IMG/VR virus record: IMGVR_UViG_3300034198_023063
Location: 1-64,000 of that record
Source: a virus
DNA length: 64,000 nt
Direction: 5' to 3' (one strand)
The first letter of the stretch is position 1. Every line of letters starts with the position of its first letter. A model generated the notes under the pieces. That model was not told the origin of the DNA, ran no database searches, and was given only the letters and a program-made list of their open reading frames with translations. Both the position numbers and the translations under genes were made by a program. This document shows positions 38,112-63,507 of the stretch, piece by piece.

Positions 38112-39248
38112 GAAGTAAAAGCTGTCAGCCTCTTCTTTGAAAGAGTCGTCTAAGATTTGAGGCAAAGGGAAAGAGCCATTTCTAACATCTGGGTGATTAA
38201 TTCCAGCCCGACAATGCCATTTGCTAGCGAACGTTTTCCCGCTTTTAATTATTATTTTATTTGTTTTGAAGAAAACTTTTGATTTATCAAGCCCATCTAA
38301 AAATGATAAATCCATTTTATTTAGCTTGTTAATTATTTTATAATTTAAATATTTTAGTTTTTCAGGCTCTAGGTCTTTATCGTTAAGGGATGTTATAATG
38401 TCATAATTAAATTTAAAAGACTCCAGTAAGTCTATAAAAGATGGATCTGAACCTTTTTGAACTTTAAAATATATTTTTTTAATTGAATTTTTATAAGTTA
38501 GTAAAATATTTTTAGAAATATCTCTATTTGTTACTATGGAAGCGGGACCATTTTTTAATTGATCAGCAAGGTTTGCTTCTGAAAAAAATTCATCCATTCT
38601 AACTAATATTTCATTTTTTGAATCATTAGTTATTTTAAAACTGCAATCTGGAATTAAATCCATAGTTGGAAATGAATAAACTTTCCCAATCGAAAGGGTT
38701 CTATCAAAATCATAATTTTCTTCAGGCGATAGTTTTGAAAGTATCTTTACTGCGATTTCTTCTGGTCTAATATTATTTATGAAATTACCAATAGGATTAA
38801 AAAAGTTTTTTGATGCTTTATTCGTATTGATGATTTCATTTTCGCCAAGCAGCAAATTGTCAACAAGATAATCTGTTTTTAAAAATATTTGCGGAATTCC
38901 TTTTTCAGAACAGATGAGAGAATAAAATTTTGAAGAACCACAATAAAGCATTGAGTGGTTTAGCATATAGGCTTTTTCAGACAAACTGGTTTCTTTGTCT
39001 ATGCAAGTGCGGCTGAATGGTTGTTTTTTGTCGTCTACAAAATTAACTATCTCTATACTATTTTTAGATAAGAAAGGCTCAATTAATTGAACGACCCTAC
39101 TCCAGAATACATAATTTAAATTTTGATCATCGTTTTGAGTTTCCAGCACTATGTATTTAGTGAATGGTAGTGGGAAAAACTTCTGATAAATAAAACTATC
39201 ATTAGGCTCGATGCCTGTAGTAGAAGAAAAAGATTTAAGTAAATTCAT
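38091..39248 (-). CDS. Degenerate GT9 (heptosyltransferase-like) C-terminal-lobe protein (385 aa)
   Basis: YIVLETQ...NYVFWSRVVQLI...TSLSEKAYMLNHSMLYCGSSKFYSLICSEKGIPQIFL follows the GT9 C-lobe pattern, but the GxDSxxxH motif is altered. Confidence 0.5.
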   Translation of the reverse strand: MNLLKSFSSTTGIEPNDSFIYQKFFPLPFTKYIVLETQNDDQNLNYVFWSRVVQLIEPFLSKNSIEIVNFVDDKKQPFSRTCIDKETSLSEKAYMLNHSMLYCGSSKFYSLICSEKGIPQIFLKTDYLVDNLLLGENEIINTNKASKNFFNPIGNFINNIRPEEIAVKILSKLSPEENYDFDRTLSIGKVYSFPTMDLIPDCSFKITNDSKNEILVRMDEFFSEANLADQLKNGPASIVTNRDISKNILLTYKNSIKKIYFKVQKGSDPSFIDLLESFKFNYDIITSLNDKDLEPEKLKYLNYKIINKLNKMDLSFLDGLDKSKVFFKTNKIIIKSGKTFASKWHCRAGINHPDVRNGSFPLPQILDDSFKEEADSFYFLTNEKI

Positions 39249-41110
39249 GGAACTAAAACAGAATGAAAATTATTAATAGAAAAATTATCAAGGCAATAAA
39301 TCGACTCAAAGTTATTTCTAAGAAATTCTAAATTGCTTAAATCTTTGCCTTGAACGAGAACTTCATGGACGTCAGTATTACCAAAGAATATTTCAGCAGA
39401 ATCTTTATTTGTATGAACAAATATTTTTTTATTTGGTTGTTTTTTCTTTATAGAAGAAATGATTTTAGTTGATAAAAAAACATTCTCCTTGGAAGAATTT
39501 ATACTAACAAAAATTCTGTCTTTCTTTTCGCTGTCTATGAATAAATTATCTACAGTAGTATTTTTAAATTTTGCTACTTCTTGCCTAGCAACATCTCTAA
39601 AAAATCCAACAATAGCATCTCTGGGAACGCCAGAATTTATTTTTTCAATCCAGTGCGTTAGACCTTCGTCGTTATCTTTGACTATTCTGCCTAGAATTTT
39701 AAAATATAAAGTTTTAAGCCATAAAATATTATCTTCTATGTTATCTATATTTGCTTCTGGGTTAGCTTTTGAATTTTTACTGTCTTCTGGACAATATTCT
39801 GAAAAGGGTTGCGAATCTAAAAATTTTTCTATTTTTCCACCAATAAAAGAGGCGGAAAAATTTTCAATTACCCATTTCCTAGCGGTTCTTCCCATTTTTT
39901 GTTTTTGAGACGAATCCATTTTGAAAACAGTTTCTAGATTTTTAGCAATTGATTTGGGGCAAGTTGAAGCTTTAATAAACTCCGTCCCGAATTCTCTATA
40001 TTCACTCCAGTCTAGAGGAATTGATGCGGCTTCTGGACAGCACATTTCTTCTCCGCAGCTATAGTTTGTAACTAAAGTAATTAAGCCAGTAAGCTTCGCT
40101 TCTTGTATGGGTATTTCCTGACCGCCGCTAGTAAAGGGATGACAATAAACATCCATGCAATTGTATATTTCATTTAATTGCTTTTCATTAACGCCGCAAG
40201 CAACACCAGTGGTTATTTGAGAATTATTAGTCCTGCAAAATTTACAACTGACTTCAGGGCCAGAGAAATTTTTAATTTCATACGCTTTGCAATTTCTACA
40301 AACGTATGTAGTCAAAACATCCGACTCTGCAACTCCAGTTTCTTTGCATAGTTTATGAATATTCCAACCTTCTTGCCAATGAGTGTGTAGAAGTAATTTT
40401 GCTGAAATCTGAGGATTGACGTCTTTGAAAATTTTAAAACCCTGTAGCAGATTAGGAACGGATTTTCTTAATTGATTTCTAAAAACAAATCCTATAATAA
40501 AATCTTTTTTTGGTATGTTGTTATTTTTTCTAATTTCATCCTTTTCTTCTTGAGGCAGCGGTTTGAAGTCGGAAATATAAATAGCTCCATGAAGGGTTTT
40601 AACGTGAGATAAACCGATCCTGTGCATTTCTTTCTCAGCAAAACTAGACCATACCCAATAGTTTTTAATTTTAGGAGCTTGAGATATGGCGGATGGAAGA
40701 AGCGGCAATGAATCTAAAGTGGTCCATATTACAGAATTAATTTTATTAAACCAAGGCTTATCAATGCAATAATCTACACCCCAAAAATCTTGAACTCCTA
40801 TATAGAAATCTGGTTTTTCATTTTCTATTATTTTATCTATTTCAAATGCTCCATATGAATATAGTCTAGTTTTATCTGGAGAACTATTAAAATCTTGAAG
40901 TTCTGGGCCTTGGCTTGGTACTACGCCAACGCTTCTCCAAGGGGTTCTTTCTAGCTCTGGATGATTTTTTGTTACTCCTCCAGCCAAGCTAATTATATCA
41001 TACTTTCCAGTATTATATAAATAAGAAAGAATGGCCTTGGCATTTCTGCCAAAGCCAGTCTTACTAAGAGCAAAATCGCTATGAAAAACTATTTTCTTCT
41101 TTTTTACCAT
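39245..41110 (-). CDS. GT-B (GT4-like) glycosyltransferase with zinc-ribbon insert, DUF4214-like helical domain and GT9-N-like tail (621 aa)
   Basis: TGFGR, FRNQLRK, DVYCHPFTSGGQEIPIQEAKLTG motifs; CRNC...CKFC insert; LYFKILGR..DNDEGLTHW helical domain. Confidence 0.8.
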   Translation of the reverse strand: MVKKKKIVFHSDFALSKTGFGRNAKAILSYLYNTGKYDIISLAGGVTKNHPELERTPWRSVGVVPSQGPELQDFNSSPDKTRLYSYGAFEIDKIIENEKPDFYIGVQDFWGVDYCIDKPWFNKINSVIWTTLDSLPLLPSAISQAPKIKNYWVWSSFAEKEMHRIGLSHVKTLHGAIYISDFKPLPQEEKDEIRKNNNIPKKDFIIGFVFRNQLRKSVPNLLQGFKIFKDVNPQISAKLLLHTHWQEGWNIHKLCKETGVAESDVLTTYVCRNCKAYEIKNFSGPEVSCKFCRTNNSQITTGVACGVNEKQLNEIYNCMDVYCHPFTSGGQEIPIQEAKLTGLITLVTNYSCGEEMCCPEAASIPLDWSEYREFGTEFIKASTCPKSIAKNLETVFKMDSSQKQKMGRTARKWVIENFSASFIGGKIEKFLDSQPFSEYCPEDSKNSKANPEANIDNIEDNILWLKTLYFKILGRIVKDNDEGLTHWIEKINSGVPRDAIVGFFRDVARQEVAKFKNTTVDNLFIDSEKKDRIFVSINSSKENVFLSTKIISSIKKKQPNKKIFVHTNKDSAEIFFGNTDVHEVLVQGKDLSNLEFLRNNFESIYCLDNFSINNFHSVLVP

Positions 41111-50920: not shown

Positions 50921-50949
50921 AGTGTGGCTTGAAATCAGAGATTAGTCAA
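50921..50949 (-). promoter_or_regulatory. Sigma70-type promoter TTGACT-N17-CACACT, 7 nt before the GTG (leaderless)
   Basis: -35 at 50949-50944, -10 at 50926-50921, GTG at 50913. Confidence 0.7.
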
Positions 50950-51993
50950 GAGGGAAATATCGTGCAAGACCATTTTGCTGACAAGGTCTTTAAATGAAGA
51001 CTTTGGACTCCATCCAAGCTCTTCTATGGCTGGATTTGAATTGCCGAGAAGTAGATCGACCTCTGCTGGTCGATAAAATTTAGGATTTATTTTAACTAAA
51101 ATAGATGAAGATGGATCATTTTTAATGGCGTATTCGGTGGTGACGCTGTACTCCTCGCTCGTTCCTTGACCATGCCAAGCCCCTTGAATGCCTGCTGTTG
51201 AAAATGCAAGCTCAACAAATTCTCTAATTGAATGAGTTTCATTTGAAGAAAGGACATAATCTTTAGGAGAGTCTCTGTTTAACATTTTCCATACCCCATC
51301 AACAAAGTCTTCGCTGTCTGACCAGTCTCTTTTAGAGTCTAGATTTCCAAGTTCAATAGCCTCAAATACTTCTCCTTTATTAATAGCATTTATTATTCTA
51401 GCTACTCCTTTAGTTATTTTTCTTGTAACAAACTCTTCTCCTCTTTTTGTCCCTTCATGATTAAATAAAATGCCATGAACGGCGTAAAGGTTGTAAGACT
51501 CTCTGTAGACCTTGACAATATGCCTAGCGGCAGCTTTAGAGGCTCCATATGGGCTTCTTGGGCGAATAGGATGGGCGATATCTTGAGGGGCGTAGGCTAC
51601 GTCTCCGAACTCTTCACTTGACCCAGCAGAATAAAACCTGCAAGCTGGTCGATGTTTTCTTATAGCTTCAAGGCATCTTGCGACTCCAGTGGCATTTGTA
51701 TCAAATGTTTGCAATGGTATTTCCCAACTGCAACCAACAAAGCTTTGCGCACCAAAATTAATAAAGTAATCTGGTTGTATTTCTTTAACTAGAGAATCTA
51801 TTGAAACACTATCGCAAAGATCGGCATAAACAAACTTAAATCTACTATTTTTAATAAACGACTGACAGTTTACAAAATTTGGATTAGAACTTCTTCTTAT
51901 TGTTCCAAATATTTCATGGTTAGTATTTTTTAATAAATACTCGACCATGTTTGCCCCGTCTTGCCCTAAAACGCCGGTTATTAAAACTCTCAT
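50935..51993 (-). CDS. gmd: GDP-mannose 4,6-dehydratase (352 aa)
   Basis: ITGVLGQDG, AQSFV, PRSPYGASK, LFNHE..RGEEFVTRKIT, LGNLDSKRDW, YRPAEVDLLLG. Confidence 0.93.
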   Translation of the reverse strand: MRVLITGVLGQDGANMVEYLLKNTNHEIFGTIRRSSNPNFVNCQSFIKNSRFKFVYADLCDSVSIDSLVKEIQPDYFINFGAQSFVGCSWEIPLQTFDTNATGVARCLEAIRKHRPACRFYSAGSSEEFGDVAYAPQDIAHPIRPRSPYGASKAAARHIVKVYRESYNLYAVHGILFNHEGTKRGEEFVTRKITKGVARIINAINKGEVFEAIELGNLDSKRDWSDSEDFVDGVWKMLNRDSPKDYVLSSNETHSIREFVELAFSTAGIQGAWHGQGTSEEYSVTTEYAIKNDPSSSILVKINPKFYRPAEVDLLLGNSNPAIEELGWSPKSSFKDLVSKMVLHDISLLTNL

Positions 51994-51994
51994 A

Positions 51995-52309
51995 TCAAAA
52001 CTTTACTCTTCCAATAATTATATCTTTAAGCATTACCCAGTCCGCTGCCTTAGCCCAGATTGGATTTTTAAATGCGGCTGGTTTATTTTTCTCTATGAAA
52101 AAATGACCGCTCCAAGCAAATGGATAAACAATAAATGGAAGCGCTATAAACATGGGAAGAAAAAACAAAGACTTCCAAAAAACGAGTCTGATACAAAGAA
52201 TAAAATAACCAATTGTAAACAACTGACCCAGAACATGAAGTCTTCTGTTCCACTTATTTTGATGGAGTGTTAGATACATTTCGTAATATTCTTTAAATGT
52301 CATATTCAT
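51995..52309 (-). CDS. DUF962/Mpo1-like small membrane protein (104 aa)
   Basis: YLTLHQNKWNRRLHVLG, two hydrophobic helices, YPFAWSGHFFIEKNKPAAF. Confidence 0.8.
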   Translation of the reverse strand: MNMTFKEYYEMYLTLHQNKWNRRLHVLGQLFTIGYFILCIRLVFWKSLFFLPMFIALPFIVYPFAWSGHFFIEKNKPAAFKNPIWAKAADWVMLKDIIIGRVKF

Positions 52310-53034
52310 GATTTTAATAATTCGCTAGATGAATATATTTTAGGAAGATCAAGAACTATTTCTAAAATATTATTTTCTTTGCAAGTTACGGACTCGGCGG
52401 AGTCTAGGTTTCCGTGTTTTCTGTCTCCACTGTTAAAAAACATGATTTTACAATCTTGATACTTACTTTTAATTAATTTTAGAGTTCGGCATTGAGTTTT
52501 ATCTTGATCTATAGAAACTATAGCTTCGTCTACACTTTTAAGATTTTTTAATATATCTTGCCTATGCGACTCTGACATAAACGATTTGCTACCTTTTAGT
52601 AAAACTTGATGATCATTATTTATAATAGCTATTAAATAAGAGCAGTTCTTTTTTGCTTCATTTATGTATTCTAGATGCCCGGAGTGGATGGGGTTGAAGT
52701 ATCCAGATACAACGCCTATAGTTTTATTTTTTATTGATTTTCTCCAATCAACAGCATTTAGGCCCTTATCGTCAATAAAAATATCGCCGTTTGGTTTACC
52801 TTTATCTATAAGTTCGTGGTATTTAACGCCCCAATGGTTTAGTTGTTTTACTGTTAGTTCATGCCAGTTTAATCCTGATGAAGCCCCTCTGGCGGTAAAT
52901 AAGATTATTATATTTCCATTTTCATAGAGATAATTTATTTCTTTTACAGCTTCTGGAAATGGCTCAGCTTTTTCGTACTCTCTTTTTTCATTTGTGGAAC
53001 ATATAGTTCCATCTATGTCAATAACATATCTCAT
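52306..53034 (-). CDS. Fusion of a HAD phosphatase and an HxGH-type sugar-phosphate nucleotidyltransferase
   Basis: N-terminal DIDGT, TARG, GKP..D..IDDK; C-terminal SGYFNPIHSGH, NND, R..IL..LKSVD, SGDR, SSS. Start moved to the ATG at 53034 (MRYVIDIDG). Confidence 0.85.
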   Translation of the reverse strand: MRYVIDIDGTICSTNEKREYEKAEPFPEAVKEINYLYENGNIIILFTARGASSGLNWHELTVKQLNHWGVKYHELIDKGKPNGDIFIDDKGLNAVDWRKSIKNKTIGVVSGYFNPIHSGHLEYINEAKKNCSYLIAIINNDHQVLLKGSKSFMSESHRQDILKNLKSVDEAIVSIDQDKTQCRTLKLIKSKYQDCKIMFFNSGDRKHGNLDSAESVTCKENNILEIVLDLPKIYSSSELLKS

Positions 53035-53992
53035 TTGTATTATCAAATATAGTAGAAGCTCCGGAATCGTCGAAGTCAAAATCTAAAACGCTGTTTCCAA
53101 ATGTTTCTTTAATTCTTTTCTTTACATTGGGATTGCAAATAACTAACACAAAACCGCATCCACCAGCGCCAAGGAGTTTGGCCCCATAAGCTCCGAGGCC
53201 AATGCATGTAGTAATAATGTTGTTTACAGAGCTGGTGGCTATTTGGTTTGATATCTTACGTTTCTCCATCCAAGATTGATATAGCAGGTTTCCTATTTCA
53301 CGAATATTTTCATTTATGAAAGAGCTATAAGCAGCTTTTGCTAATTGGAGTATTTCTAGTTTGTTTTGATTTTCGTGAGACTTGGCGACGTCGCTAGACT
53401 GTCTTTGCTCATTAGAGTAAATTAAAACCATTGATCTTTGAAGCTCTCGTTTGAACTCCTCTGTAACTGGCAGGGGCTTAACAAGAAAGTCGCCATTGGT
53501 TTTAATATTTATTGTATTAAGTCCTCCATAAGCGGACCATATTTGATCTTGAATACCGCCACTTTCGTTGAGGGTTGTTCTTTCTATTTCTATAGCGTCT
53601 TTTGCTAGCGTTTTTTTAGAAGTTTCTAGTTTAAGAAATTTTCTAATTAAATAACTCATTCCGACGCAATAAGAGGATGACCCTCCTAGGCCTGTTCTAG
53701 AAGGTATATCGGAAAAAGAAATAAATTCTATAGGAGATTTAATTTTAAAATATTTTAACGTTTCTCTTATAAGTGGATTTTCTATTTCTTCTAATGTTTT
53801 AACTCTTTCAAACTTTGAATAACTTATTGTCGTTTCTTCGGATAAAATTTTTGGTTTTTCTCTTATAGAAAGATATGCATATTTATTTATAGCGCAGCCA
53901 ATTATAAAAGATTCATGCTTCTCGTAAAAATCTTTATAATCAGTCGAGCCACCAAAAAATGAAACTCTAAATGGAGATTTCGCTAAAATCAT
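53018..53992 (-). CDS. GHMP-family sugar kinase, HddA-like (heptose 7-phosphate kinase family; 324 aa)
   Basis: SPFRVSFFGGSTD, SDIPSRTGLGGSSS, GGIQDQ, GAKLLGAGGCGF. Confidence 0.88.
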   Translation of the reverse strand: MILAKSPFRVSFFGGSTDYKDFYEKHESFIIGCAINKYAYLSIREKPKILSEETTISYSKFERVKTLEEIENPLIRETLKYFKIKSPIEFISFSDIPSRTGLGGSSSYCVGMSYLIRKFLKLETSKKTLAKDAIEIERTTLNESGGIQDQIWSAYGGLNTINIKTNGDFLVKPLPVTEEFKRELQRSMVLIYSNEQRQSSDVAKSHENQNKLEILQLAKAAYSSFINENIREIGNLLYQSWMEKRKISNQIATSSVNNIITTCIGLGAYGAKLLGAGGCGFVLVICNPNVKKRIKETFGNSVLDFDFDDSGASTIFDNTNEICY

Positions 53993-55164
53993 GACGGCAA
54001 GCTATTTACAAGAGAAGTGAGTTGTAAGATATGTTCTTTGGGAAGCTCTGGATAATTTCCTATATACCATCCGAAACTATGGCAATGATCTGTAATAGGA
54101 AAATTAAGATAATAATTATCGAAGAGCTTTTTTAGATACGGCTGACGCAATTGATTGCCGCCTCCAGATAAACCTCTTCTAAATTCTATCCCTGCATTTT
54201 TTAAAGCTATTTCAACATTTAATGCTAGCGTTGGGCTTGGCTGTCTTAAAATAAGGGTAAATGCATAATTAGAATTTCCTTCTCTATCAAATCCTGTAAA
54301 AAATTTGGTGGGATCTAAATTATCTAAGAACAGATTTAAGTTTTCTGCTCTAATTTTATTATTTTTATCTAAATTAGGTAGCTGGTTCAAAGCTAATACG
54401 GCGTTGATTTCTGTAGACCTAAAATTATGAGCGGCCTCTAGGAATACAAAGTCTTTATTTAAATCTGGGTGTTGATTTAAAATTTTACTCTTTAGATTTT
54501 CATCAGTTGTTTCTCTTAACATTCCGTGAGAGCGGAAAGCTCTGATAAGTTGATATATATCATGATTGTTGGTGCTAATCATGCCGCCCTCAATAGAAGT
54601 CATGTGATGGGCGTAATAAAAAGAAAAATTAGAAATATCTCCAAAGGTTCCTACTTTTTGACCTTTAAATGTGGCTCCATGAGATTCGCAAACATCTTCA
54701 ATCAATAGAATATTCTTTTCCTTACATAACTTAAGAAGCTCGTCACTTAGGCCATTATATCCTAAAATGTGTATTAGCAAAATAGCTTTAGTTTTTGGAG
54801 TGATTTTAGCTTTTATTTGCTCAATATCTAAGGCTAGATTGTTAAGTGTGATGTCGCAAAATACTGGAGTGAAATCATTCTGTAAAATTGCAGCAACATC
54901 TGAAACCCAAGCCATGGGGGGTACAATAACTTCCCCGCCTTCAGGGAACATATACTTAAGATAAAGCAGGGACAACTCGTTAGCGGCGCTGCCTGAGTTT
55001 ACCATTATATTATATTTAGTCCCAAGCCATTCTCCCCACTTAGTTTCGAACTCTCTTACTTTAGAAGAGTTGGTGAGAATAGGGAGTGGATCTTGAGATA
55101 GGAAATCAATAATTGAATTCGCGTCTGATCGCGAAATATTGTTATGCATTAATGGCCATTTCAT
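53989..55164 (-). CDS. PLP-dependent NDP-4-keto-6-deoxysugar 3-dehydratase, ColD-like (DegT/DnrJ fold; 391 aa)
   Basis: VNSGSAAN, IEDVCESHGA and SFYYAHHMTSIEGG, with His at the Schiff-base Lys position. No RfbH-type Fe-S Cys cluster. Confidence 0.8.
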   Translation of the reverse strand: MKWPLMHNNISRSDANSIIDFLSQDPLPILTNSSKVREFETKWGEWLGTKYNIMVNSGSAANELSLLYLKYMFPEGGEVIVPPMAWVSDVAAILQNDFTPVFCDITLNNLALDIEQIKAKITPKTKAILLIHILGYNGLSDELLKLCKEKNILLIEDVCESHGATFKGQKVGTFGDISNFSFYYAHHMTSIEGGMISTNNHDIYQLIRAFRSHGMLRETTDENLKSKILNQHPDLNKDFVFLEAAHNFRSTEINAVLALNQLPNLDKNNKIRAENLNLFLDNLDPTKFFTGFDREGNSNYAFTLILRQPSPTLALNVEIALKNAGIEFRRGLSGGGNQLRQPYLKKLFDNYYLNFPITDHCHSFGWYIGNYPELPKEHILQLTSLVNSLPS

Positions 55165-55179
55165 ACAGTATTAGTTTTA

Positions 55180-55974
55180 TTAAGTTAAAGAATTAGATAT
55201 TTCTAAAAACTTTGTTCTTTTTTCTATTATCTCTTTTAGAAGAGAGCTAACGCCATCGGGCGGACAATATCTTCTGTGCAACGCGTTACGATTAGAAGCC
55301 ATTCTTTTGGTTCCTGAATCTGATTCCATAGTTTTATTATGAATGGATTTATGTAAAATATTAATTTTTTCTCTATAATTTAAAATAGTAAATTTATTAG
55401 ATTCTTTTGCAAGTTTATATAATTTTACATCACCTTCCCACGTTGGATATTCTCTAGGGTAAAATTCTCCCAAATCAAAGCAGTAATTAGAAGAAAGAAT
55501 AGGAAAACAACAGCATTCAAATATTTCTTCTTCGTGTATTCGTTTGTTTTGTTTCCAGTGGGTGTCGTCAGATATAGAAATATAATAATATTTATTAGAT
55601 AAAAAATCAGACTGAAATTTTTGAGAATAAATTATTTTTTCAAGTTCTAAATCCCAATTTTTAGTATCGATAGAGCAATCATTTCCTAAAATCCATTTAA
55701 AATAAGATTGCTCGCTAAGATCTAACCCGAGGCTGTAATAGTGGTTAGGAAGGTCTAATGATTTTTCCTGTTTTCTAGATATAAATTTAAATTCATAAGA
55801 AAGTTTTAGAGCTGTTTTTTGAAAAAGGTTTATTGTTTCTATATCGTCATGATCGCAAACTCCAACAACATCTATTTTTTCTTTGTTTTTTGTAAATTTT
55901 TCTATAGACAAGAGTAATTGCTCAGTGGAATCTAATCTAGATCTGGCAGGAAAAATAATTGATACGGTATTCAT
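55180..55974 (-). CDS. GT-A (GT2-like) glycosyltransferase (264 aa)
   Basis: VSIIFPARSR...CDHDD, WILGND, CFPILS, WEGD. Confidence 0.65.
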   Translation of the reverse strand: MNTVSIIFPARSRLDSTEQLLLSIEKFTKNKEKIDVVGVCDHDDIETINLFQKTALKLSYEFKFISRKQEKSLDLPNHYYSLGLDLSEQSYFKWILGNDCSIDTKNWDLELEKIIYSQKFQSDFLSNKYYYISISDDTHWKQNKRIHEEEIFECCCFPILSSNYCFDLGEFYPREYPTWEGDVKLYKLAKESNKFTILNYREKINILHKSIHNKTMESDSGTKRMASNRNALHRRYCPPDGVSSLLKEIIEKRTKFLEISNSLT

Positions 55975-55980
55975 AATATA

Positions 55981-56952
55981 TTAAAAAAAACTACATTTTA
56001 TAGTTTCGTAATCTAGCTGTTCTTTTGTTAAATAAAGATTATTTTTTAAGAACTGCTTTAATCTTTCTGGATCTTTAGATTTACCGTCTGGATGATAGCA
56101 TTCAGGACGATGAGGAAGAATTCTATTGCATTCTTCATACCCAAAACCGCATTCAACAGCTTCTGGATCTTGTACGATTTTAAAAATTGTTTCAGGAGCG
56201 GGAGCAATAAAAGTATGGCACCAAGCTGGAAATTGCACTAATTCTGGCCTAAATCCAGAACTTGCGCCATCCATGCTTGTTTGATGGTGCGCAATGACAT
56301 CTTTATGAGCAATAAATTTCTTATTAACACTAGCACATAAATAAGAAAAAACAGATTCCGTACAGCAAGAAGCGAAAATATCGGGTATTAATTTTTGATT
56401 AAAATTTTCGTATAAAGAATGATCAAATATTTGACAATGCAAATTTAAAGTTTTGCCTATTGGAATAATTAAATGATCGTTTTTGAAAAGAGAACCTTGA
56501 ATAGATTCGTCATTAGAAAATTGACTTTCATTAAACCATACGAATGCCCCGCTGTCAGAATCTGTCCTTGAGCAAGTCATTGCATATTCTTTAGAACAAT
56601 GCAAACTATAAAGCTTTTCTATAGCGTTTAAATCATGCTCAAGGCTTATTCCTGAATCGATATATAAATATCCACTAAATGGCCCAAATCTTTTAACGCA
56701 TTCTTGGGCTGTTTTATTAAATGTTACGTTTACTGGAAGCTTTTCATCTATAAAACAATAATTTATTAAATCACCAAAAGAATCTCTTAAGTAGTTTTTA
56801 GTGTTTTCGCTATTAAGGCACGAAGACACTACTATTTTTATATTTTTTTTAGTTTGATTTAAAAAACTAGTTATTGAATTTTTATAATAGAAAATATTTT
56901 CTCTTCCAGAAATGCCGCATGTATTATATACTAGTAAAAGATCGTTATTCAT
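55981..56952 (-). CDS. Putative GT-A glycosyltransferase (323 aa)
   Basis: SITSFLNQT, IVVSSC, NVTFN, YLYIDSG; located in the GT cluster. Confidence 0.6.
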   Translation of the reverse strand: MNNDLLLVYNTCGISGRENIFYYKNSITSFLNQTKKNIKIVVSSCLNSENTKNYLRDSFGDLINYCFIDEKLPVNVTFNKTAQECVKRFGPFSGYLYIDSGISLEHDLNAIEKLYSLHCSKEYAMTCSRTDSDSGAFVWFNESQFSNDESIQGSLFKNDHLIIPIGKTLNLHCQIFDHSLYENFNQKLIPDIFASCCTESVFSYLCASVNKKFIAHKDVIAHHQTSMDGASSGFRPELVQFPAWCHTFIAPAPETIFKIVQDPEAVECGFGYEECNRILPHRPECYHPDGKSKDPERLKQFLKNNLYLTKEQLDYETIKCSFF

Positions 56953-57692
56953 AGTTGAAAATTATATGTTGTATTTGGTAAATGGGAAATAGAAACTAAA
57001 GATTTAAAAATTGACTCATCGTAATTATCAAAACTTAAATTGCTTTTTTCTGAATTAAATTTTTGATTGCATTCCATATAAATATCTGGGCCTAATTTTT
57101 CCGTTGGTCTTTCGCCGTTTATCATCTCTTCGTAGAATCCGAGCCAATGATCAACCCAATGATGAATGAAACATGTATTAAATATTACATTTTCCATGTG
57201 TTTTTCTATAGATAGTCTTTCTATAGCAAAAAAATGCCATACATTATAGGGTCTTCCATTTTTAATTGAGCAAAGCGGATTGTCTGGCCATATATTTCCA
57301 GTATGGCGCTTTATCCTTTTATCGTAATAATTTTTTTCTGGACCACCTAGATGATGTGTTAAATTGCATATTCTAAAATCTAAACTTTGAAAATCATCAT
57401 TAGAAAAATAGTCTTTTATTTTTAGAAAATCTTGCTTTACGCAATGGTCATCTGGTAAAATTATAACGTAATCGTTTTGAGATTCTTTGTACGCTTTATT
57501 AAAACCATAAACAGATCCATTATTTTTGTCGTCTTCAACCCATTTTATATTTGAGCTTTCTTTTATTTTATTTTTGGAACAGACAATTATTTCATAATTA
57601 GAATCATCCAAATCTGTTATTGATTTAATAGTATTTTCTAAAGCAAAATTCGATTTGTTGCTGGCTATAATATAAGATAGTTTGTTTTTCAT
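56949..57692 (-). CDS. GT-A (GT2-like) glycosyltransferase (247 aa)
   Basis: LSYIIAS, YEIIVCS, GSVYGFNKAY, VIILPDDH, IFNTCFIHHWVDHWL. Confidence 0.75.
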   Translation of the reverse strand: MKNKLSYIIASNKSNFALENTIKSITDLDDSNYEIIVCSKNKIKESSNIKWVEDDKNNGSVYGFNKAYKESQNDYVIILPDDHCVKQDFLKIKDYFSNDDFQSLDFRICNLTHHLGGPEKNYYDKRIKRHTGNIWPDNPLCSIKNGRPYNVWHFFAIERLSIEKHMENVIFNTCFIHHWVDHWLGFYEEMINGERPTEKLGPDIYMECNQKFNSEKSNLSFDNYDESIFKSLVSISHLPNTTYNFQL

Positions 57693-58406
57693 TCAATCCT
57701 CTCTTTCATTATAGCAAAGAGTGTTATTTTTAAAAAATTTCTTTACGAGTTTTTCGTAAGTTTCGAAATCTTTCGAATCATTAACTGTATAAGACGTTGG
57801 TTTTTCAGAAATTCTATTTAAAGAAGATCCAAGACAAAAAATTGGCTCGCCATCTATTTTAGATATAAAAAAAGGCAAAAAGTTATCAGCGTAATGATGC
57901 AAGAAAGATTGATTAAAAATCACTCCTTGGAGATAATTTTCAACTGTTTCTCTATCAAATACTGGATATCCCATGATCATTTCGGTCGGCTCGTTATATA
58001 TATTTTCAATGGGTGGTATTCTTGTGGCTGTTAATTTATTTAAATTTAAAGGGGCTCCTATAGCTGTTATTTTTAATTTTCTATTGTTAAAAATGTTAGA
58101 TTTTAATAATTCTATGGCGTCTAAACAACCATCTGAAAGTTTATGATCGTCATTTAAAATAAAAATATATTTGCCTTTAGACGCTTTGTACATTTCATTA
58201 TAGCACTTAACAGTATTCCCATATTTTTTATTAGTATCTATTATATTAATTATTCTATCGTCTTTTATTTGTTCGAATGAAGATATAATTATTTCAAAAG
58301 AATATTTTTTATAATGATTGGTGGTAGTGTCGATAATATTATCTACTACTTTTTTACATAAAACATCATAATTTTCGCCATTTACTATAAGAAAAGAAAT
58401 ATCCAT
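57693..58406 (-). CDS. GT-A (GT2-like) glycosyltransferase, paralog of 56949..57692 (237 aa)
   Basis: ISFLIV, FEIIISS, CYNEMYKASKG, FILNDDH, IFNQSFLHHYADNFL. Confidence 0.75.
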   Translation of the reverse strand: MDISFLIVNGENYDVLCKKVVDNIIDTTTNHYKKYSFEIIISSFEQIKDDRIINIIDTNKKYGNTVKCYNEMYKASKGKYIFILNDDHKLSDGCLDAIELLKSNIFNNRKLKITAIGAPLNLNKLTATRIPPIENIYNEPTEMIMGYPVFDRETVENYLQGVIFNQSFLHHYADNFLPFFISKIDGEPIFCLGSSLNRISEKPTSYTVNDSKDFETYEKLVKKFFKNNTLCYNERED

Positions 58407-58407
58407 A

Positions 58408-59304
58408 TTATTTTGCGGTTATAATTTCAATAAGATTTTTAGCTTTTTCTTTATGTATGTTGCTGGAATGTTTTAATTTATAATTCCTGAGAGAATTGAG
58501 TCTTTTCTGTATTAATTTTTCTCTATTGGAGCAAATATCAGTTATTTGATTTATTTCATTATAATTTATAGAATTTAATTTATTACAATATTCATCCATT
58601 CCCCATCCGTCCGAAACAATCAGGCAAAGACCAAAAGACATAGCGTTAGTTAAAGAGCAGGAGTGGACTTGTCTTGATGGAAGTAAGAAAATATCTGATT
58701 TATAGTATAGTTCTTGAAGTTCATTTTCTGAAATATATTCTTTGATTATATTTACTTTATCTGGGAATAGATTTTTGCATTTTAGATTTTTATTAGTTCT
58801 AAAAGTCAAATTAATATTAATATTATTTTGAAGAAGATAACATGCTATGTCATCCACTTTATCTCCGCCTCTTTCGAAAAAATTATTATCGTTTATGTCT
58901 ATCCAGCTACCCCAAGCTATAAGATTAATAGGCCTATCAGATTTTAAAGATTCTATATTTTGTAAAATAATAGAATAGTTTTTATCTGGAGAAGATAAGT
59001 CTAGATGATATGTATTGCAATTATATTTTTCAAATACTTGCTCGCATGTGTTTTTTATATGACTAATAAAACCGAGAAAATTTTTATTGTTTATGATTTC
59101 TTCTCTTCGAAAAGTTTTGAATTCTTCTAAATATAGAAAAAATGGTTTTTTATAAAACTCTTCGTTTGAATAAAATGGCAAATTCATGCCAGAATGAGGG
59201 TCGTCAAGTCCTATAATATTGCAATCAAAGTCTATACTTTTAAAAGTATTTCTTAATACATTATATAAAGTATGATCGTTTTTAATTGCGAAAATGTTTA
59301 TCAT
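58408..59304 (-). CDS. GT-B (GT4-like) glycosyltransferase, atypical
   Basis: RGG, ISENELQELYYKSDIFLLPS...AMSFGLCLIVSD. Start moved to the ATG at 59304, 1 nt after the upstream stop. Confidence 0.65.
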   Translation of the reverse strand: MINIFAIKNDHTLYNVLRNTFKSIDFDCNIIGLDDPHSGMNLPFYSNEEFYKKPFFLYLEEFKTFRREEIINNKNFLGFISHIKNTCEQVFEKYNCNTYHLDLSSPDKNYSIILQNIESLKSDRPINLIAWGSWIDINDNNFFERGGDKVDDIACYLLQNNININLTFRTNKNLKCKNLFPDKVNIIKEYISENELQELYYKSDIFLLPSRQVHSCSLTNAMSFGLCLIVSDGWGMDEYCNKLNSINYNEINQITDICSNREKLIQKRLNSLRNYKLKHSSNIHKEKAKNLIEIITAK

Positions 59305-59305
59305 A

Positions 59306-59836
59306 TTATTTTTCGTTGTAAAAATCTCCCCATTCAACTAAAATTGTAGATTTGCCATCTGTTCTATTCAAGGCTTTCTCATAAGCAGGAAATATGTCTT
59401 CAGGCTCATCTAGCCTAATAACGTCAATATTAGACAGCATCAATTTAAAAGCCTCTGTAAAATCTCCAACATGTTGATGCTGGGGGTGCATTGGGCGGAT
59501 AGATCCAATTCCTGTTCTAATTATAGCTTTTGTTTTATAATCAGAAATCATTTGGATCTTGTCAAGATGACTAACTACTTGGTTGGTCGCCAATAAAAAG
59601 AAATTCCATCTTGGATAAATGCTGATTGGTATTTTTCCAGATAAAGCAAGCCCATTTGTGATTCCAGCTTGTAAGTCTTCGCAAACTGGAAGCTCTAGTT
59701 TCTTAGAATCTGGAACATCTTTCAGGGTATTAGTCATTGCAGTCCCAGCGTATTCAACGGCCTGACCAATAAAAATAGTGTCTGGATGAGAAGCCAGAAA
59801 ATTCATTGATCTTTTTAATTCGTCAAAATATTTCAT
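59306..59836 (-). CDS. Truncated TPP-dependent E1-beta/transketolase pyrimidine-binding subunit (176 aa)
   Basis: IFIGQAV, ELPVCEDLQAGITNGLAL, QVVSHLDK, HPQHQH. The C-terminal domain of canonical E1-beta is absent. Confidence 0.85.
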   Translation of the reverse strand: MKYFDELKRSMNFLASHPDTIFIGQAVEYAGTAMTNTLKDVPDSKKLELPVCEDLQAGITNGLALSGKIPISIYPRWNFFLLATNQVVSHLDKIQMISDYKTKAIIRTGIGSIRPMHPQHQHVGDFTEAFKLMLSNIDVIRLDEPEDIFPAYEKALNRTDGKSTILVEWGDFYNEK

Positions 59837-59837
59837 A

Positions 59838-60446
59838 TTAAAATTGAACTCTTTGCCCAGCGCCAGCGTGGGGCCATTTAGTTTCGTACTTATAGTAGTG
59901 AATGTATTTGTTATAAACTCCTTCGTAAGTTAATCTAATTGAATTCCATGTTTTTTTAGTATCTGTGCATACGGATTTTCCATTGTCCTCAATAATGAAT
60001 CTTACTGGAAGATCGTGATTTTTAACATATTTATAGCATTCTTCAAAAGATCCAGTTTCAGATGTCATGTCTCCTACGAAACAATGTATTTTTTCTGAAG
60101 ATCCATTTCTTTTAGAAGCTATTCCAAGGCCGACTGCTATAGGTAATATTCCAGTCACAATAGCGGAAGAAAACACTTTATATTCAGGAAAGCAAAGAGA
60201 AATAGATTTGCCATCCATAATACTTTGTTTGACTTGATCTTGAGGGACTCCCTTTAGAAGGCATTGATAATGACTTCTCCAAGTACAAAGAACCCAATCT
60301 TCATCTTTTATATCTTGAAAAACATTTATAATGCTATCTTCGTTTCCATTATATAGATGAACTGGAGATTTTATTTTGCCAGAATTAAATTCTTTGGCAA
60401 TATCTTCTTCAAATTCAATCAATTCTTCTTTTGAATATTTTTTCAT
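59838..60446 (-). CDS. Short TPP-dependent E1-alpha-like subunit (202 aa)
   Basis: PVHLYNGNE, TWRSHYQCL, SAIVTG, variant TPP motif GDMTSETG...IIEDN, C-terminal HAG. Confidence 0.85.
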   Translation of the reverse strand: MKKYSKEELIEFEEDIAKEFNSGKIKSPVHLYNGNEDSIINVFQDIKDEDWVLCTWRSHYQCLLKGVPQDQVKQSIMDGKSISLCFPEYKVFSSAIVTGILPIAVGLGIASKRNGSSEKIHCFVGDMTSETGSFEECYKYVKNHDLPVRFIIEDNGKSVCTDTKKTWNSIRLTYEGVYNKYIHYYKYETKWPHAGAGQRVQF

Positions 60447-61967
60447 TTAATTGTAAATTTTACGTTTGAGTTTTACTTGTAACATATTTTTGATATTTTC
60501 ACAAGCCCTTATTCCAAATTTATTTTTTATCTTTTCTAAAAATTTTGAATCGTTATGATATTCTTCGAAAGCTAAATCTCTAAATTTTAAAATTTCAGCA
60601 GCGCTCAAAGTTTCTGTAGGAAGAGGCATAGTGTCGTATCCATGAAAAGAAAACGCTTCATACTTATCTGGAACTTGTATGTTTTTAGATATAGCGTCTT
60701 TGTAAAGTTGGCTGCCGGGAAGAGCCATTGCTGCGTAGGCATTCCAACCTGCTGTGCAAAGTTCTTTTGAGAACTCTAAAGTCTTTCTCATACTTTCTAA
60801 AGTATCTCCGGGAAGTCCAAAAATATAATTAGCCATTACTTCTATTCCAGAATCGTGGACTTGAGATATTACTTTTCTTATGTCAACTTCTTCGAATTTT
60901 CCTTTAGATACTTCTAGTCTTACTGATTTTTCTGCGCTTTCTATGCCAAGAGCAAGCCATCTGATTCCAGCAGATCTAACTAGCTTTAAAAGCTCTGGAT
61001 TGCGTACAGTATCTATTCTTGAATAAGCCCACATCATTAAATCTTTACCGTATCCACGATCTCTAAGCATTTCACATAAAGGGGCATAAAATTTTTTATT
61101 GAGTAAGAACATTTCGTCAGTTATTTTTATTGTTCTAACTCCCATGGAATATAGTTTGTCAAACTCTTTAATTATAAATTCAGGAGTCCAATACCTCATT
61201 CCACTATATTTACCAGCAACGCCTACTTCTTCATTATCATTTCTATTGATAATATTTATCATGCAGAAATTACATGCGAATTGGCATCCTAGAGAAGTTT
61301 GAATTGCTGCGTAAGGAGTCCTTTTCGATTCGTCATATTCAGAATGCCATAGCGGAGATCTATACAAGTCGAGAGGAGATTTATCAAATGGCAAGAGATC
61401 CCAAGCGTATCCCGGTAAATCTATATCCATTCTGTCGTTTGGAACAACTTTTTCTGGAGGATTTATTGTTACTACTCCATTTTTTCTCCAAACTATGCCT
61501 TTAATTTCTTCTAAGTTAGAAAAATCATTTAAAGCAGCAAGATTTCTTATGGCATAAACACCTTCATTTGTGCAAGCGAAATCTATAGACTCTTCTTCTT
61601 TTAAGCATTTAATAGGAAGAGCTTGGACATAAGAGCCGATATAGCAAATTGGAATTTTTACATTTTTTGATTTTAAAAATTTAGAAACAAAAACAGCTCC
61701 AGACATATTTACTGTCCCAGCATTTACATTTTGCCCGTATACGACAAAACATAAAAGCTTGGGTTTCAGTTCATTTATTCTGTCTAGAATAGACTCGTTG
61801 CTAAGTCTTTCGGCGTTGATATCTAATATTCCGACTTTAAATCCGATTGACCTACAAGATTCAGCCAATAATAATGCCCAAGTAGGAGGTTCTATTGCAG
61901 AATAAGATTCAGAAAGACTTTGATAAATTCCAGAAGAGTTGCCGGGAGATATGAATAGTATGTCCAT
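60447..61967 (-). CDS. Cobalamin-binding radical SAM enzyme (class B methyltransferase-like)
   Basis: N-terminal B12-binding domain (EPPTW, LDINAE, EGV), CQFACNFC, GIES, YIFGLPGDT, ALPGSQLY. Start likely the ATG at 61967. Confidence 0.9.
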   Translation of the reverse strand: MDILFISPGNSSGIYQSLSESYSAIEPPTWALLLAESCRSIGFKVGILDINAERLSNESILDRINELKPKLLCFVVYGQNVNAGTVNMSGAVFVSKFLKSKNVKIPICYIGSYVQALPIKCLKEEESIDFACTNEGVYAIRNLAALNDFSNLEEIKGIVWRKNGVVTINPPEKVVPNDRMDIDLPGYAWDLLPFDKSPLDLYRSPLWHSEYDESKRTPYAAIQTSLGCQFACNFCMINIINRNDNEEVGVAGKYSGMRYWTPEFIIKEFDKLYSMGVRTIKITDEMFLLNKKFYAPLCEMLRDRGYGKDLMMWAYSRIDTVRNPELLKLVRSAGIRWLALGIESAEKSVRLEVSKGKFEEVDIRKVISQVHDSGIEVMANYIFGLPGDTLESMRKTLEFSKELCTAGWNAYAAMALPGSQLYKDAISKNIQVPDKYEAFSFHGYDTMPLPTETLSAAEILKFRDLAFEEYHNDSKFLEKIKNKFGIRACENIKNMLQVKLKRKIYN

Positions 61968-61969
61968 AA

Positions 61970-62575
61970 TTATAATTGTTTTATCCAAGTATTAAATCCA
62001 ATAAGCTCAATATCATATCCAAAATGATCAAAAGTAGCTTGAATAACCCCTTGATGTCTTGGCGGGTTTCCAGTGCAATCTTTATTTAAAATATTAGGAT
62101 CTTTTGTTTCGTTAACAAATTCAAATCCTTCAAAATCATGACCGCATAAAAAACCTCCTTTTTTAACTTTTGGAATACATAACTTAATATCAGAATATAC
62201 GCTATCATATGCGTGGTCGGCGTCTATAAAGCAAATATCTAAAGAGTTATCTGGTATTAAAGGAATCATGTCTTGACTTTTGCCATCTTTTATTTCAATT
62301 ATATCAAGATATTCAGAAAGATTGGTTTTGAATTGTTTCAAAATTAATTCATGATTATCTTCATTATACCCATGCGGTCCTACTACGTTAAGATTTCCTT
62401 TAAACCAGTCTACTATATATATTTTTCCTTTATTTTTTTTTATTGTTTTTACATAGCCAATCGTTGTAGAGCCATCGAAAGAACCAATTTCAGCAACTGT
62501 GATTCCGTTTTTTGCATTTTTATGTATTAAATTAGTAAAAGCAAAATTTTGCTCTGTTATAAAATTTTTTATCAT
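61970..62575 (-). CDS. Class I SAM-dependent methyltransferase (Methyltransf_24-like; 201 aa)
   Basis: AEIGSFDGSTT, VDWF, FIDADHAYDSV..D, GGFLCGHDF. Confidence 0.85.
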   Translation of the reverse strand: MIKNFITEQNFAFTNLIHKNAKNGITVAEIGSFDGSTTIGYVKTIKKNKGKIYIVDWFKGNLNVVGPHGYNEDNHELILKQFKTNLSEYLDIIEIKDGKSQDMIPLIPDNSLDICFIDADHAYDSVYSDIKLCIPKVKKGGFLCGHDFEGFEFVNETKDPNILNKDCTGNPPRHQGVIQATFDHFGYDIELIGFNTWIKQL

Positions 62576-63507
62576 AGATTTGTGAAATCTTTATTTTTAT
62601 ATTTTATTATTTGTTGATATCCACAAATCAACTCACTGATTCCAGCCTCTAAAGAAAAATTTGGGCTCCATCCGTAAGACTCTATCTTTTCGTTTGATAC
62701 CCTATAATTCCTTTGATCGAAATCTTTTTTAAATTCATTTTGAACAATAACTAGTTCAGGAACAAATTTTTTGATCGTTTCAACGAGTTGTAGTTTATTA
62801 AGATTAGCGTCAGAAAGACCAACATTAAAAGCGTTGTTGTTGCAATTCAGATAGCGATTAACCATGAAAGAAAATGCTTTGGCTACGTCTCTGACATGAA
62901 TATAGTTTCTTATAAAATGAGATTCAAAAAGAACCAAATAACCATCAGTTAATGATTTATATACCAAATCGTTAACAAGAAGATCCATTCTCATTCTGTA
63001 AGACATTCCAAAAACTGTGGCAAGCCTTAGCGCTATTCCATTTCCAGAGTCTAATAGAGCTTTTTCTGCATCACATTTAGTTTCAGCGTAAAGAGAAAGA
63101 GGTTTAAATGGACTACTTTCAGTAATAATTTCAGTAGAAGACCCATACTGGCTATTAGTATTCGGCAATATGATTCTGTGTCTAGGGCTAGAGAATTTAA
63201 TTACATTTTTTATTTGATTAAGATTAATGTCTATAGCTGCTTGAGGATTAACTTTGCAAGCTGGCATCCCAACTATTGCAGCTAGTGGAATAACAACTTC
63301 GTTCTCTTTTACAAACTTTTCCAAAAGCGCGGAATTTCTTACGTCGCCAAGAATAAACTTAAAAGATTTGTTGTGAAAAAATCCACTCAGAGAAAGTTGG
63401 TTGTAACATAAATTATCCAAAACTGTTACCTCATGCCCTTCTTTGAGTAAGGTTTCAGTAAGCACTGATCCTAAATAGCCAGCTCCTCCTGTAATTAAAA
63501 TTTTCAT
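62572..63507 (-). CDS. NAD(P)-dependent nucleotide-sugar epimerase/reductase (extended SDR; 311 aa)
   Basis: ITGGAGYLGS, LAAIVG, YAETK, LRLATVFG, RNYIHVRD. Confidence 0.9.
   Translation of the reverse strand: MKILITGGAGYLGSVLTETLLKEGHEVTVLDNLCYNQLSLSGFFHNKSFKFILGDVRNSALLEKFVKENEVVIPLAAIVGMPACKVNPQAAIDINLNQIKNVIKFSSPRHRIILPNTNSQYGSSTEIITESSPFKPLSLYAETKCDAEKALLDSGNGIALRLATVFGMSYRMRMDLLVNDLVYKSLTDGYLVLFESHFIRNYIHVRDVAKAFSFMVNRYLNCNNNAFNVGLSDANLNKLQLVETIKKFVPELVIVQNEFKKDFDQRNYRVSNEKIESYGWSPNFSLEAGISELICGYQQIIKYKNKDFTNL

Follow-up and report, generated by a model that had tools for sequence, protein, structure and literature searches.

The sugar gene array

The window analysed here consists of the first 64 kb (64,000 nucleotides) of the viral record IMGVR_UViG_3300034198_023063 in IMG/VR, a contig of 80,757 bp whose completeness CheckV places at about 53%. 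From about 50.9 kb to about 69.6 kb of the record, a single unbroken array of minus-strand genes crosses the end of the window and brings together predicted enzymes of sugar activation, deoxygenation, carbon–carbon bond formation, methylation and glycosyl transfer. Our interest lies in the sugar that this array might produce, for which we propose a C-branched deoxyheptose. Unless stated otherwise, the features described below lie on the minus strand.

A sequence-only reading of the window had recognised in the array a Gmd-type dehydratase, an enzyme dependent on pyridoxal phosphate (PLP), a pair of E1alpha/E1beta subunits dependent on thiamine diphosphate (ThDP), a short-chain dehydrogenase/reductase (SDR), a B12 radical S-adenosylmethionine (SAM) enzyme and a methyltransferase. 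Open reading frame (ORF) and profile checks confirmed all of these genes as intact minus-strand ORFs. The array also holds genes which that reading had not listed, namely an HddA-like GHMP kinase, a fusion of a haloacid dehalogenase (HAD) domain with a nucleotidyltransferase (NTase), an Mpo1/DUF962-like gene and, in the interval from the PLP enzyme to the ThDP pair, five ORFs resembling glycosyltransferases. Past the window end it continues with a nucleosidase, an RmlC-like epimerase and three further glycosyltransferase-like genes.

A split ThDP enzyme beside a ColD-like dehydratase

Two short genes of the array encode a minimal ThDP enzyme split over two chains. The alpha subunit (59838..60446; 202 amino acids, aa) comprises the PP domain only (PF00676, E 7e-14; TIGR03182, 83 bits) and the beta subunit (59306..59836; 176 aa) the Pyr domain only (PF02779, E 2e-7), the former corresponding to the first half of phrog_34187 (E 2e-43) and the latter to its second half. 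The alpha cofactor motif reads GDM...EDN; its G(D/E)M and EDN elements, together with the cofactor-activating Glu53 of the beta subunit, are invariant across 87 homologues. Neither the C-terminal portion of E1alpha nor the transketolase_C domain seen in E1beta is present, and the E2-docking C-terminal domain is missing. An E2 (2-oxoacid_dh) domain was found neither in the contig of 80.7 kb nor in a complete relative of 174.5 kb, so that the earlier description of an E1 pair without E2 holds. The YerE-type architecture (TPP_enzyme_N/M/C) was not matched, the Pfam and NCBIfam matches of the pair being limited to E1_dh, PDH E1alpha and Transket_pyr.

The second component of this core is a ColD-like nucleoside diphosphate (NDP)-4-keto-sugar 3-dehydratase (53989..55164) of the DegT family, dependent on pyridoxamine phosphate (PMP) or PLP. 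ColD itself is its best solved relative (PDB 2gms, E 1e-53), to be compared with E 2.5e-37 for the E1/RfbH structure 3bcx. His186 replaces the lysine of the Schiff base, and the sequence AHH aligns with SHH of ColD, the first histidine being the residue mutated in 3b8x; the His-His pair is invariant in all 85 cassette homologues considered. Cysteines are found at positions 103, 147, 159 and 361 only, which leaves no cluster motif of the E1/RfbH type. The structural alignments and the cysteine positions thus agree with the initial view of a PLP enzyme with histidine in place of the catalytic lysine and without an Fe-S cysteine cluster. No ColC-type GDP-colitose synthase is present in the cluster.

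E1-type pairs such as AviB1/B2, Pau11/12 and KbDH are known to install acetyl branches on keto-sugars (PMC4425429, PMC4753412, PMC12247030), and in the pathways leading to yersiniose, erwiniose and caryophyllose the acceptor is a 3-deoxy-4-keto NDP-sugar (PMC9306805). The linkage of E1alpha and E1beta to the ColD-like gene, documented below, supports the C-branching of such a sugar. By analogy with these systems, the ThDP pair probably transfers an acyl anion to C4 of a 3-deoxy-4-keto sugar.

At E<1e-30, the E1alpha-like protein has homologues in 115 clusters among 1.8 billion representatives, whose members bear no informative names. Some metagenomic homologues (P0067 and P0049 among the examples) carry an intein (Intein_splicing/HINT) or a LAGLIDADG domain, and others occur as fusions with an APH-like kinase or a GlnE-like nucleotidyltransferase domain. 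These fused forms were discarded as uninformative about the chemistry.

A conserved cassette in bacteria

One genome per prokaryotic species was scanned with an alignment of six E1alpha sequences, and 80 loci were sampled for their neighbouring genes. Homologues of E1alpha with 58–67% identity were found in 261 bacterial genomes, whose carriers include Verrucomicrobiota, Nitrospira, Planctomycetota and Burkholderiales, with cultured strains of Massilia, Piscinibacter and Herbaspirillum. Median lengths in these loci are 209 aa for the alpha subunit (n=80) and 178 aa for the beta subunit (n=79), and because they are equally short we regard the reduced form of the phage enzyme as the native one.

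The neighbourhood of E1alpha is highly consistent. An E1beta-like gene lies beside it in 79 of the 80 loci, a ColD-like gene in 76, an HddA-like kinase in 71, an HddC/ManC-like NTP-transferase in 68, a Cj1427-like SDR in 66 and a B12-radical SAM enzyme in 59. A GDP-fucose-synthase (GFS)-like SDR is found in 44 loci, an L-2-hydroxyglutarate oxidase in 19 and a GmhA-like isomerase in 16. In 65 of 75 loci, the next gene after E1beta on the same strand is the ColD-like one, and the E1alpha–E1beta–ColD triad is conserved across phyla. Around these genes lie glycosyltransferases together with an ABC-2 transporter and RmlD, which identifies these regions as surface-polysaccharide loci. We consider the chances even that the phage cluster is a copy of this conserved surface-glycan cassette, which would start from an activated heptose.

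Viral relatives

The sequence-only reading knew of no virus with this combination of genes, a view which does not stand. A megablast comparison of the cluster with 50,697 phage records gave zero matches. At least 12 viral contigs of IMG/VR carry the same array, and cyanophages possess the ThDP enzyme in a fused form. The order shared by the viral arrays is epimerase, Cj1427-like SDR, radical SAM enzyme, E1alpha, E1beta, a variable block of transferases, ColD-like enzyme, HddA-like kinase, NTase, Mpo1-like protein and Gmd-like enzyme. In close viral relatives, a GFS-like SDR lies directly upstream of ColD, a position where the present phage has none.

Two more distant contigs, L014 and L015, keep a core made of the epimerase, the Cj1427-like SDR, the radical SAM enzyme, E1alpha, E1beta, the ColD-like enzyme and a GT-A glycosyltransferase, and they too lack the GFS-like reductase. 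L014 has a pfkB kinase, a separate NTase and a mini-HAD gene. It also encodes a SPASM radical SAM enzyme, a phosphoribosyltransferase, a small cupin and a DUF366 protein (9313-10536, 11097-11976 and 12718-13299 of that contig).

In a tree built on concatenated E1alpha, E1beta and ColD sequences, the viral sequences group as a single clade (support 1.0). Its sister is L045, a contig binned as Candidatus Saccharibacteria, which carries an NTase of the phage-type HIGH family (67% identity) and the closest non-viral HddA-like, ColD-like and E1 genes. This contig may be a mis-binned fragment of a phage or prophage, or the result of a recent transfer.

The cyanophages P-TIM68 (KM359505) and S-SM2 (GU071095) have this ThDP enzyme in the form of a fused protein of 402 aa (phrog_34187, 37–38% identity). 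They share the mini-HAD protein described below, and their clusters likewise contain a kinase, an NTase, epimerases, glycosyltransferases and genes annotated as heptose-type. What sets them apart is a kinase of the pfkB type and a Zn-alcohol dehydrogenase, and no homologue of the ColD-like or B12-radical SAM enzyme was found in the 18.5 kb examined of each.

Probable enzymes of heptose activation

Upstream of branching, several enzymes of the array have heptose-specific relatives. The HddA-like GHMP kinase (53018..53992), of the heptose-7-phosphate kinase type, was assigned on PDB and NCBIfam matches. In the PDB its top four matches are all heptose-7-phosphate kinases (4n3o at E 4e-32, 3k85, 4usk and 4usm, spanning E 4e-32 to 2e-21), and the next ones are mevalonate kinases at E 6e-9.

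The adjoining gene (52306..53034, with a probable ATG start at 53034) encodes a putative mini-HAD phosphatase fused to a HIGH-motif, cytidylyltransferase-like sugar-phosphate NTase (PF01467; similar to TIGR00125/RfaE domain II). The HAD part, of about 100 aa, contains a DIDGT motif and has only a weak HAD_PNKP match in Pfam. When it is aligned with its stand-alone homologues, the DxD, TAR, K and DD motifs are invariant. Such homologues, 102–112 aa in length, occur in P-TIM68, S-SM2 and the viral contigs L014 and L015, and the NTase is likewise a separate protein of 154–163 aa in close viral relatives. In the contig, no NTP_transferase gene scored above the cut-off for an HddC (GlmU-fold) guanylyltransferase, the HIGH-motif domain standing in its place.

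The cyanophage versions of the mini-HAD, AIR93532.1 of P-TIM68 (locus 12483-12821) and SSM2_207 of S-SM2 (locus 16983-17294), are proteins of 103–112 aa annotated as 'phosphoheptose isomerase'. They align with the mini-HAD of the window at 46–53% identity with all the phosphatase motifs (DxD, TAR, K and DD) invariant, and judging by this alignment their annotation looks wrong.

Predicted formation of the 4-keto group and epimerisation

Two genes near opposite ends of the in-window array could each provide a 4-keto sugar. The Gmd-like NDP-sugar 4,6-dehydratase (50935..51993; 352 aa; PF16363, E 5e-106) contains the Ser/Glu pair in SSEE together with Y149xxxK153, and its best PDB matches are all GDP-mannose 4,6-dehydratases. 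Its close homologues carry either no name or the JGI label 'GDPmannose 4,6-dehydratase', which does not settle the substrate. In close viral relatives the gene adjoins the block of HddA-like and NTase genes; it is absent from the bacterial cassettes.

The SDR at the other end (62572..63507), which has the Y140xxxK144 motif, matches PDB 6vo6/6vo8 over residues 2–300 with E 4e-94 and 318 bits, the next SDR structure following at 4e-21. We take 6vo6 to be the Campylobacter GDP-heptose C4-dehydrogenase Cj1427, and the SDR is then a probable NDP-heptose C4-dehydrogenase recycled by alpha-ketoglutarate. The sequence-only reading had cast this SDR as the reductase acting after branching; its closeness to a C4-dehydrogenase speaks against that role, for which the contig has no other candidate either.

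In Campylobacter jejuni, Cj1427 regenerates NAD+ from its tightly bound NADH at the expense of alpha-ketoglutarate, giving L-2-hydroxyglutarate, and together with the 3-dehydratase of serotype HS:5 it yields GDP-3-deoxy-4-keto-heptose in vitro (PMC10680097). The presence of an L-2-hydroxyglutarate oxidase in 19 of the 66 bacterial loci with a Cj1427-like gene fits this cycle. A C4-dehydrogenase and a 4,6-dehydratase are both present in C. jejuni HS:3, HS:4 and HS:23/36.

The RmlC-like epimerase just past the window end finds its best matches among GDP-4-keto-heptose 3- and 3,5-epimerases. No C4-reductase of the GFS-like type is encoded in the contig, whose only two SDR genes are not GFS-like. 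The lack of a C4-reductase fits a sugar whose C4 ends as a tertiary alcohol.

Radical SAM enzyme, methyltransferase and nucleosidase

Three genes could modify the sugar further or support such modification. The radical SAM enzyme with a B12-binding domain (60447..61988; 513 aa; PF04055, E 6e-18) has its CxxxCxxC motif as CQFACNFC at residue 235, and its B12-binding domain (PF02310) scores 31.8 bits against a cut-off of 32.1. Its best NCBIfam match is HpnJ (128 bits, cut-off 577) and its best PDB match AprD4 (6fd2, E 3e-12), neither of these named relatives being a simple methylase. The enzyme could be a C-methylase like other class B enzymes, or a dehydratase in view of its nearest structure, AprD4. 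Next to it lies a class I SAM methyltransferase of the Methyltransf_24 type, weakly TylF-like (61970..62575; 201 aa; PF13578, E 2e-17). This gene has no homologue in the 12 related viral loci, where a Methyltransf_23/11 gene occurs elsewhere. The third is a nucleosidase-like gene of the 5'-methylthioadenosine/S-adenosylhomocysteine (MTA/SAH) and 5'-deoxyadenosine type (63504..64000, the ORF extending to 64013 of the genome; PF01048, E 3e-12; NCBIfam PRK05634, E 4e-17), which plausibly clears the SAM by-products of the two other enzymes.

Proposed pathway

Taken together, these genes lead us to propose, with a probability of about 0.5, that the product of the cluster is a C-branched 3-deoxy or 3,6-dideoxy heptose, methylated, derived from an activated heptose and attached by glycosyltransferases of the phage. 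All steps of the pathway are inferred from homology and gene linkage. The host GmhA would supply heptose-7-phosphate, from which the HddA-like kinase would make the 1,7-bisphosphate; the HAD domain would then take off the 7-phosphate and the fused NTase would form an NDP-heptose, probably GDP-heptose. The 4-keto group would be introduced by the Cj1427-like dehydrogenase on a 6-hydroxy route, by the Gmd-like 4,6-dehydratase on a 6-deoxy route, or by both. The His-type ColD-like enzyme would next remove the 3-hydroxyl and the RmlC-like epimerase invert C5 (or C3 and C5).

At this point the split ThDP enzyme would decarboxylate a 2-oxo acid, pyruvate by precedent, and transfer the acyl anion to the C4 ketone. 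The result would be a C-branched 3-deoxy or 3,6-dideoxy heptose bearing a tertiary alcohol. Methyl groups could come from the B12-radical SAM enzyme and the methyltransferase, with the nucleosidase removing the SAM by-products, and about eight soluble glycosyltransferases would build the glycan on a putative cytoplasmic acceptor.

The backbone is probably a heptose and not mannose. To the putative HAD phosphatase, heptose-type kinase, Cj1427-like SDR and heptose-type epimerase of the phage, the bacterial cassettes add an HddC-like enzyme, GmhA and the L-2-hydroxyglutarate oxidase, and the whole set suggests that the substrate of the ColD-like enzyme is GDP-4-keto-heptose rather than GDP-4-keto-6-deoxy-D-mannose. 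The GDP carrier put forward by the sequence-only reading appears plausible, since each downstream enzyme has its nearest relatives among those of GDP-sugars and an HddC/ManC-like guanylyltransferase is part of the bacterial cassettes. The logic of deoxygenation followed by branching also survives: formation of a 4-keto group, ColD-type deoxygenation at C3 and a ThDP-dependent C–C bond remain the best reading in view of the conserved triad and of the E1-pair precedents. What has to be abandoned is the mannose backbone, and with it the yersiniose-like octose, as a heptose backbone would give a branched nonose-type sugar.

Several observations weigh against the heptose pathway as we propose it. 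The identification of 6vo6 with Cj1427 is provisional and is supported by the depositor's molecule name. The Gmd-like enzyme reaches 334 bits with TIGR01472, for which the cut-off is 415. The kinase scores 135 bits with the NCBIfam HddA model, below the equivalog cut-off of 600, and is for this reason a distant member of the HddA group. As the NTase belongs to the ADP/CDP-type HIGH family and not to that of HddC, the nucleotide is uncertain. GmhA is presumably supplied by the host, neither the contig of 80.7 kb nor the complete relative of 174.5 kb having given a SIS_2 match. The GFS-like SDR of close viral relatives and of 44 of the 80 bacterial loci could just reduce C4, and the nearest solved relative of the radical SAM enzyme, AprD4, is a diol dehydratase and not a methylase. 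In other phages a set of kinase, HAD and NTase yields UDP-arabinose (PMC13326640), which makes this activation logic non-specific for heptose. Finally, searches of a limited library of papers found none on a cassette uniting heptose, ThDP and radical SAM enzymes.

More tentatively, and with clear doubts, we suggest that the product is a branched GDP-sugar of at least 10 carbons, undescribed in any organism, in which a 3-deoxy or 3,6-dideoxy heptose would carry both a ThDP-derived branch at C4 and a C-methyl group from the radical SAM enzyme. Large aquatic phages may have captured this pathway to decorate a cytoplasmic target such as virion proteins.

Alternative explanations

The best surviving alternative, which we nevertheless consider unlikely, keeps the heptose pathway and moves the unusual chemistry away from the ring. 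The radical SAM and ThDP enzymes would act on the exocyclic C6–C7 chain or at another position, for instance through an AprD4-like diol dehydration producing a carbonyl that the ThDP enzyme would extend. Such chemistry would lead to a higher sugar with an extended chain or a rearranged skeleton, the GFS-like SDR reducing C4 where it is present. The resemblance to AprD4 and the borderline score of the B12-binding domain favour this possibility, as does the distribution of the GFS-like reductase in viral and bacterial relatives; from a chemical viewpoint, D-glycero-heptose would also offer a vicinal diol at C6/C7. Gene linkage points the other way, the ThDP pair being tied most tightly to the ColD-like gene (65 of 75 adjacent), whereas the radical SAM gene is present in 59 of 80 loci at variable positions. 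Moreover, this phage, L014 and L015 do without the GFS-like reductase, and every ThDP precedent in sugar biosynthesis uses a ring ketone.

The pathway of the sequence-only reading is less probable still. It would convert host GDP-mannose by Gmd and the ColD-like enzyme, add a two-carbon branch at C4 with the ThDP pair and end in a GDP-linked yersiniose-like octose, leaving the kinase, HAD and NTase to serve another sugar. GDP-mannose is a common host metabolite, the solved relatives of the Gmd-like enzyme are GDP-mannose dehydratases, the PLP enzyme is nearest to ColD of Escherichia coli, and sequence cannot separate Gmd-type enzymes acting on mannose from those acting on heptose. Yet the bacterial cassettes combine the ThDP pair and the ColD-like enzyme without any Gmd-like gene, having instead the Cj1427-like, HddA-like and HddC-like genes and sometimes GmhA. 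In the phage, the Gmd-like gene is grouped in a single block with those of the HddA-like kinase and the NTase, and the best matches of the SDR and epimerase are heptose-specific enzymes.

Least probable is a Campylobacter-like pathway to a 3,6-dideoxy- or 3-deoxy-heptose without C–C bond formation, in which the ThDP pair and the radical SAM enzyme would serve a non-sugar substituent or another role: without these genes the set does equal the C. jejuni HS:5 pathway, reductase excepted, but the E1alpha–E1beta–ColD triad is kept across phyla, the contig has no C4-reductase and the ThDP enzyme also sits within the sugar clusters of cyanophages.

The idea that a C4-branched 6-deoxyheptose methylated at C7 could be erwiniose was considered and rejected, as erwiniose and caryophyllose derive from CDP-3,6-dideoxy-4-keto-glucose and longer 2-oxo acids through YerE-like enzymes (PMC9306805).

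Comparison with known systems

The closest known system is that of the capsular GDP-heptoses of C. jejuni, whose pathways involve GmhA, HddA, GmhB, HddC, Cj1427, a 4,6-dehydratase, the HS:5 C3-dehydratase, C3/C5-epimerases and C4-reductases (PMC10680097). The phage shares with it an HddA-type kinase, a Cj1427-type SDR, a Gmd-type 4,6-dehydratase, a His-type PLP 3-dehydratase and an RmlC-type epimerase, and resembles HS:3, HS:4 and HS:23/36 in having the dehydrogenase and the dehydratase together. It differs by the absence of GmhA, by the fusion of a HIGH-family NTase with a mini-HAD that replaces HddC and GmhB, by the lack of a C4-reductase and by soluble glycosyltransferases without export genes. 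The ThDP pair, the B12-radical SAM enzyme, the methyltransferase and the nucleosidase are additions reported in no C. jejuni cluster.

AviB1/B2, Pau11/12 and KbDH-alpha/beta are, like the phage pair, two-subunit E1-like enzymes without E2 or E3, encoded among deoxysugar genes beside an enzyme that makes a keto-deoxysugar. By analogy, the expected chemistry is the same, with a 2-oxo acid as donor of an acyl anion and the ketone of a sugar as its acceptor. Compared by description, Pau11/12 are much longer (325 + 345 aa, against 202 + 176 aa here). The three systems have a GDG motif where the phage and its relatives have GDM or GEM, and they belong to actinomycete dTDP-hexose pathways, in contrast with the Gram-negative-type surface-glycan loci, the phages and the probable heptose discussed here.

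YerE/YerF, ErwE and MMAR_2332 (PMC9306805) offer a parallel in the order of events, a His-type PLP/PMP dehydratase producing a 3-deoxy-4-keto NDP-sugar that a ThDP carboligase turns into a 4-C-branched lipopolysaccharide sugar. Their carboligase is a single-chain flavoenzyme of the decarboxylase superfamily working with a CDP carrier, a hexose and an E1/E3 Fe-S 3-deoxygenation, whereas the phage has a split E1-like enzyme, a ColD-like dehydratase without cluster and probably a heptose. With the colitose pathway of ColD (2gms, 3gr9) the phage shares the histidine in place of the catalytic lysine and the absence of an Fe-S motif. It lacks a ColC-type synthase, and its dehydratase is predicted to use a heptose, like the HS:5 C3-dehydratase.

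If the proposed pathway is correct, it would open a new branch of heptose chemistry in bacteria and phages, present in at least 261 genomes of several phyla and in many aquatic phages and leading to an undescribed sugar. The phage would possess a complete pathway from a sugar phosphate to a glycan. Its 202 + 176-aa enzyme would be the smallest known two-subunit ThDP carboligase, and a minimal, easily expressed catalyst for tertiary alcohols would join the biocatalysis toolbox. A 2025 review of ThDP carboligases calls viruses unexplored ground (PMC12247030).

Glycosyltransferases and the acceptor

Eight glycosyltransferase-like ORFs belong to the array, five of them in the window and three beyond. 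The first by coordinate, a 264-aa protein (55180..55974; phrog_14945, E 3e-6), belongs to the variable section of the array. The following gene (55981..56952; 323 aa) has no Pfam family and was recognised as a GT-A fold glycosyltransferase from an AlphaFold model (pTM 0.82) and a Foldseek comparison, with TarP, TarS and SpsA as best matches (E 1.6e-9). It is present in all viral relatives, and directly after ColD in L014 and L015. A GT2-family enzyme (56949..57692; 247 aa; PF00535, E 4e-6) is followed by a probable GT-A-like protein (57693..58406; 237 aa), a weak assignment as no Pfam or PHROG family was found; this protein has 36% identity to a 273-aa ORF of the viral contig L009, which itself matches the adjoining GT2 enzyme. 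The last in-window gene encodes a GT1-family (GT-B) enzyme (58408..59337; 309 aa; PF00534, E 6e-7; phrog_2170). Another transferase of the array has a fold resembling GT9 heptosyltransferases, which is a lead only.

None of the array transferases has membrane segments, and the cluster contains no flippase, polymerase or ABC transporter. These soluble transferases point to a cytoplasmic target. Apart from the sugar cluster, a glycosyltransferase of 621 aa (39245-41110; phrog_2170, E 5e-13) is encoded in the replication module.

Other features of the record

The Mpo1/DUF962-like gene (51995..52309; 104 aa; PF06127, E 2e-26) encodes a small membrane protein with two transmembrane-like segments, the sole protein of the cluster to have any. 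With 85–88% identity in viral relatives it is the best conserved of the small cluster genes, and none of the 80 bacterial cassette loci contains it.

Elsewhere in the window, six large ORFs at 6214-17416 and 38091-39248, five on the plus strand (172–620 aa) and one on the minus strand (385 aa), match no PHROG family at E 1e-5, and these regions are poorly represented among described phages as far as this comparison goes. No thymidylate-synthase-like hydroxymethylase, as expected of a DNA hypermodification route, was found in the contig, a weak negative as the contig covers about half of the genome. The stretch has no listed RNA holder. Within the glycan array, past the window end, lies a class II, B12-dependent ribonucleotide reductase (66125-68095 of the genome). 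Its presence along with the B12-domain radical SAM enzyme suggests that the phage relies on the cobalamin of its host.

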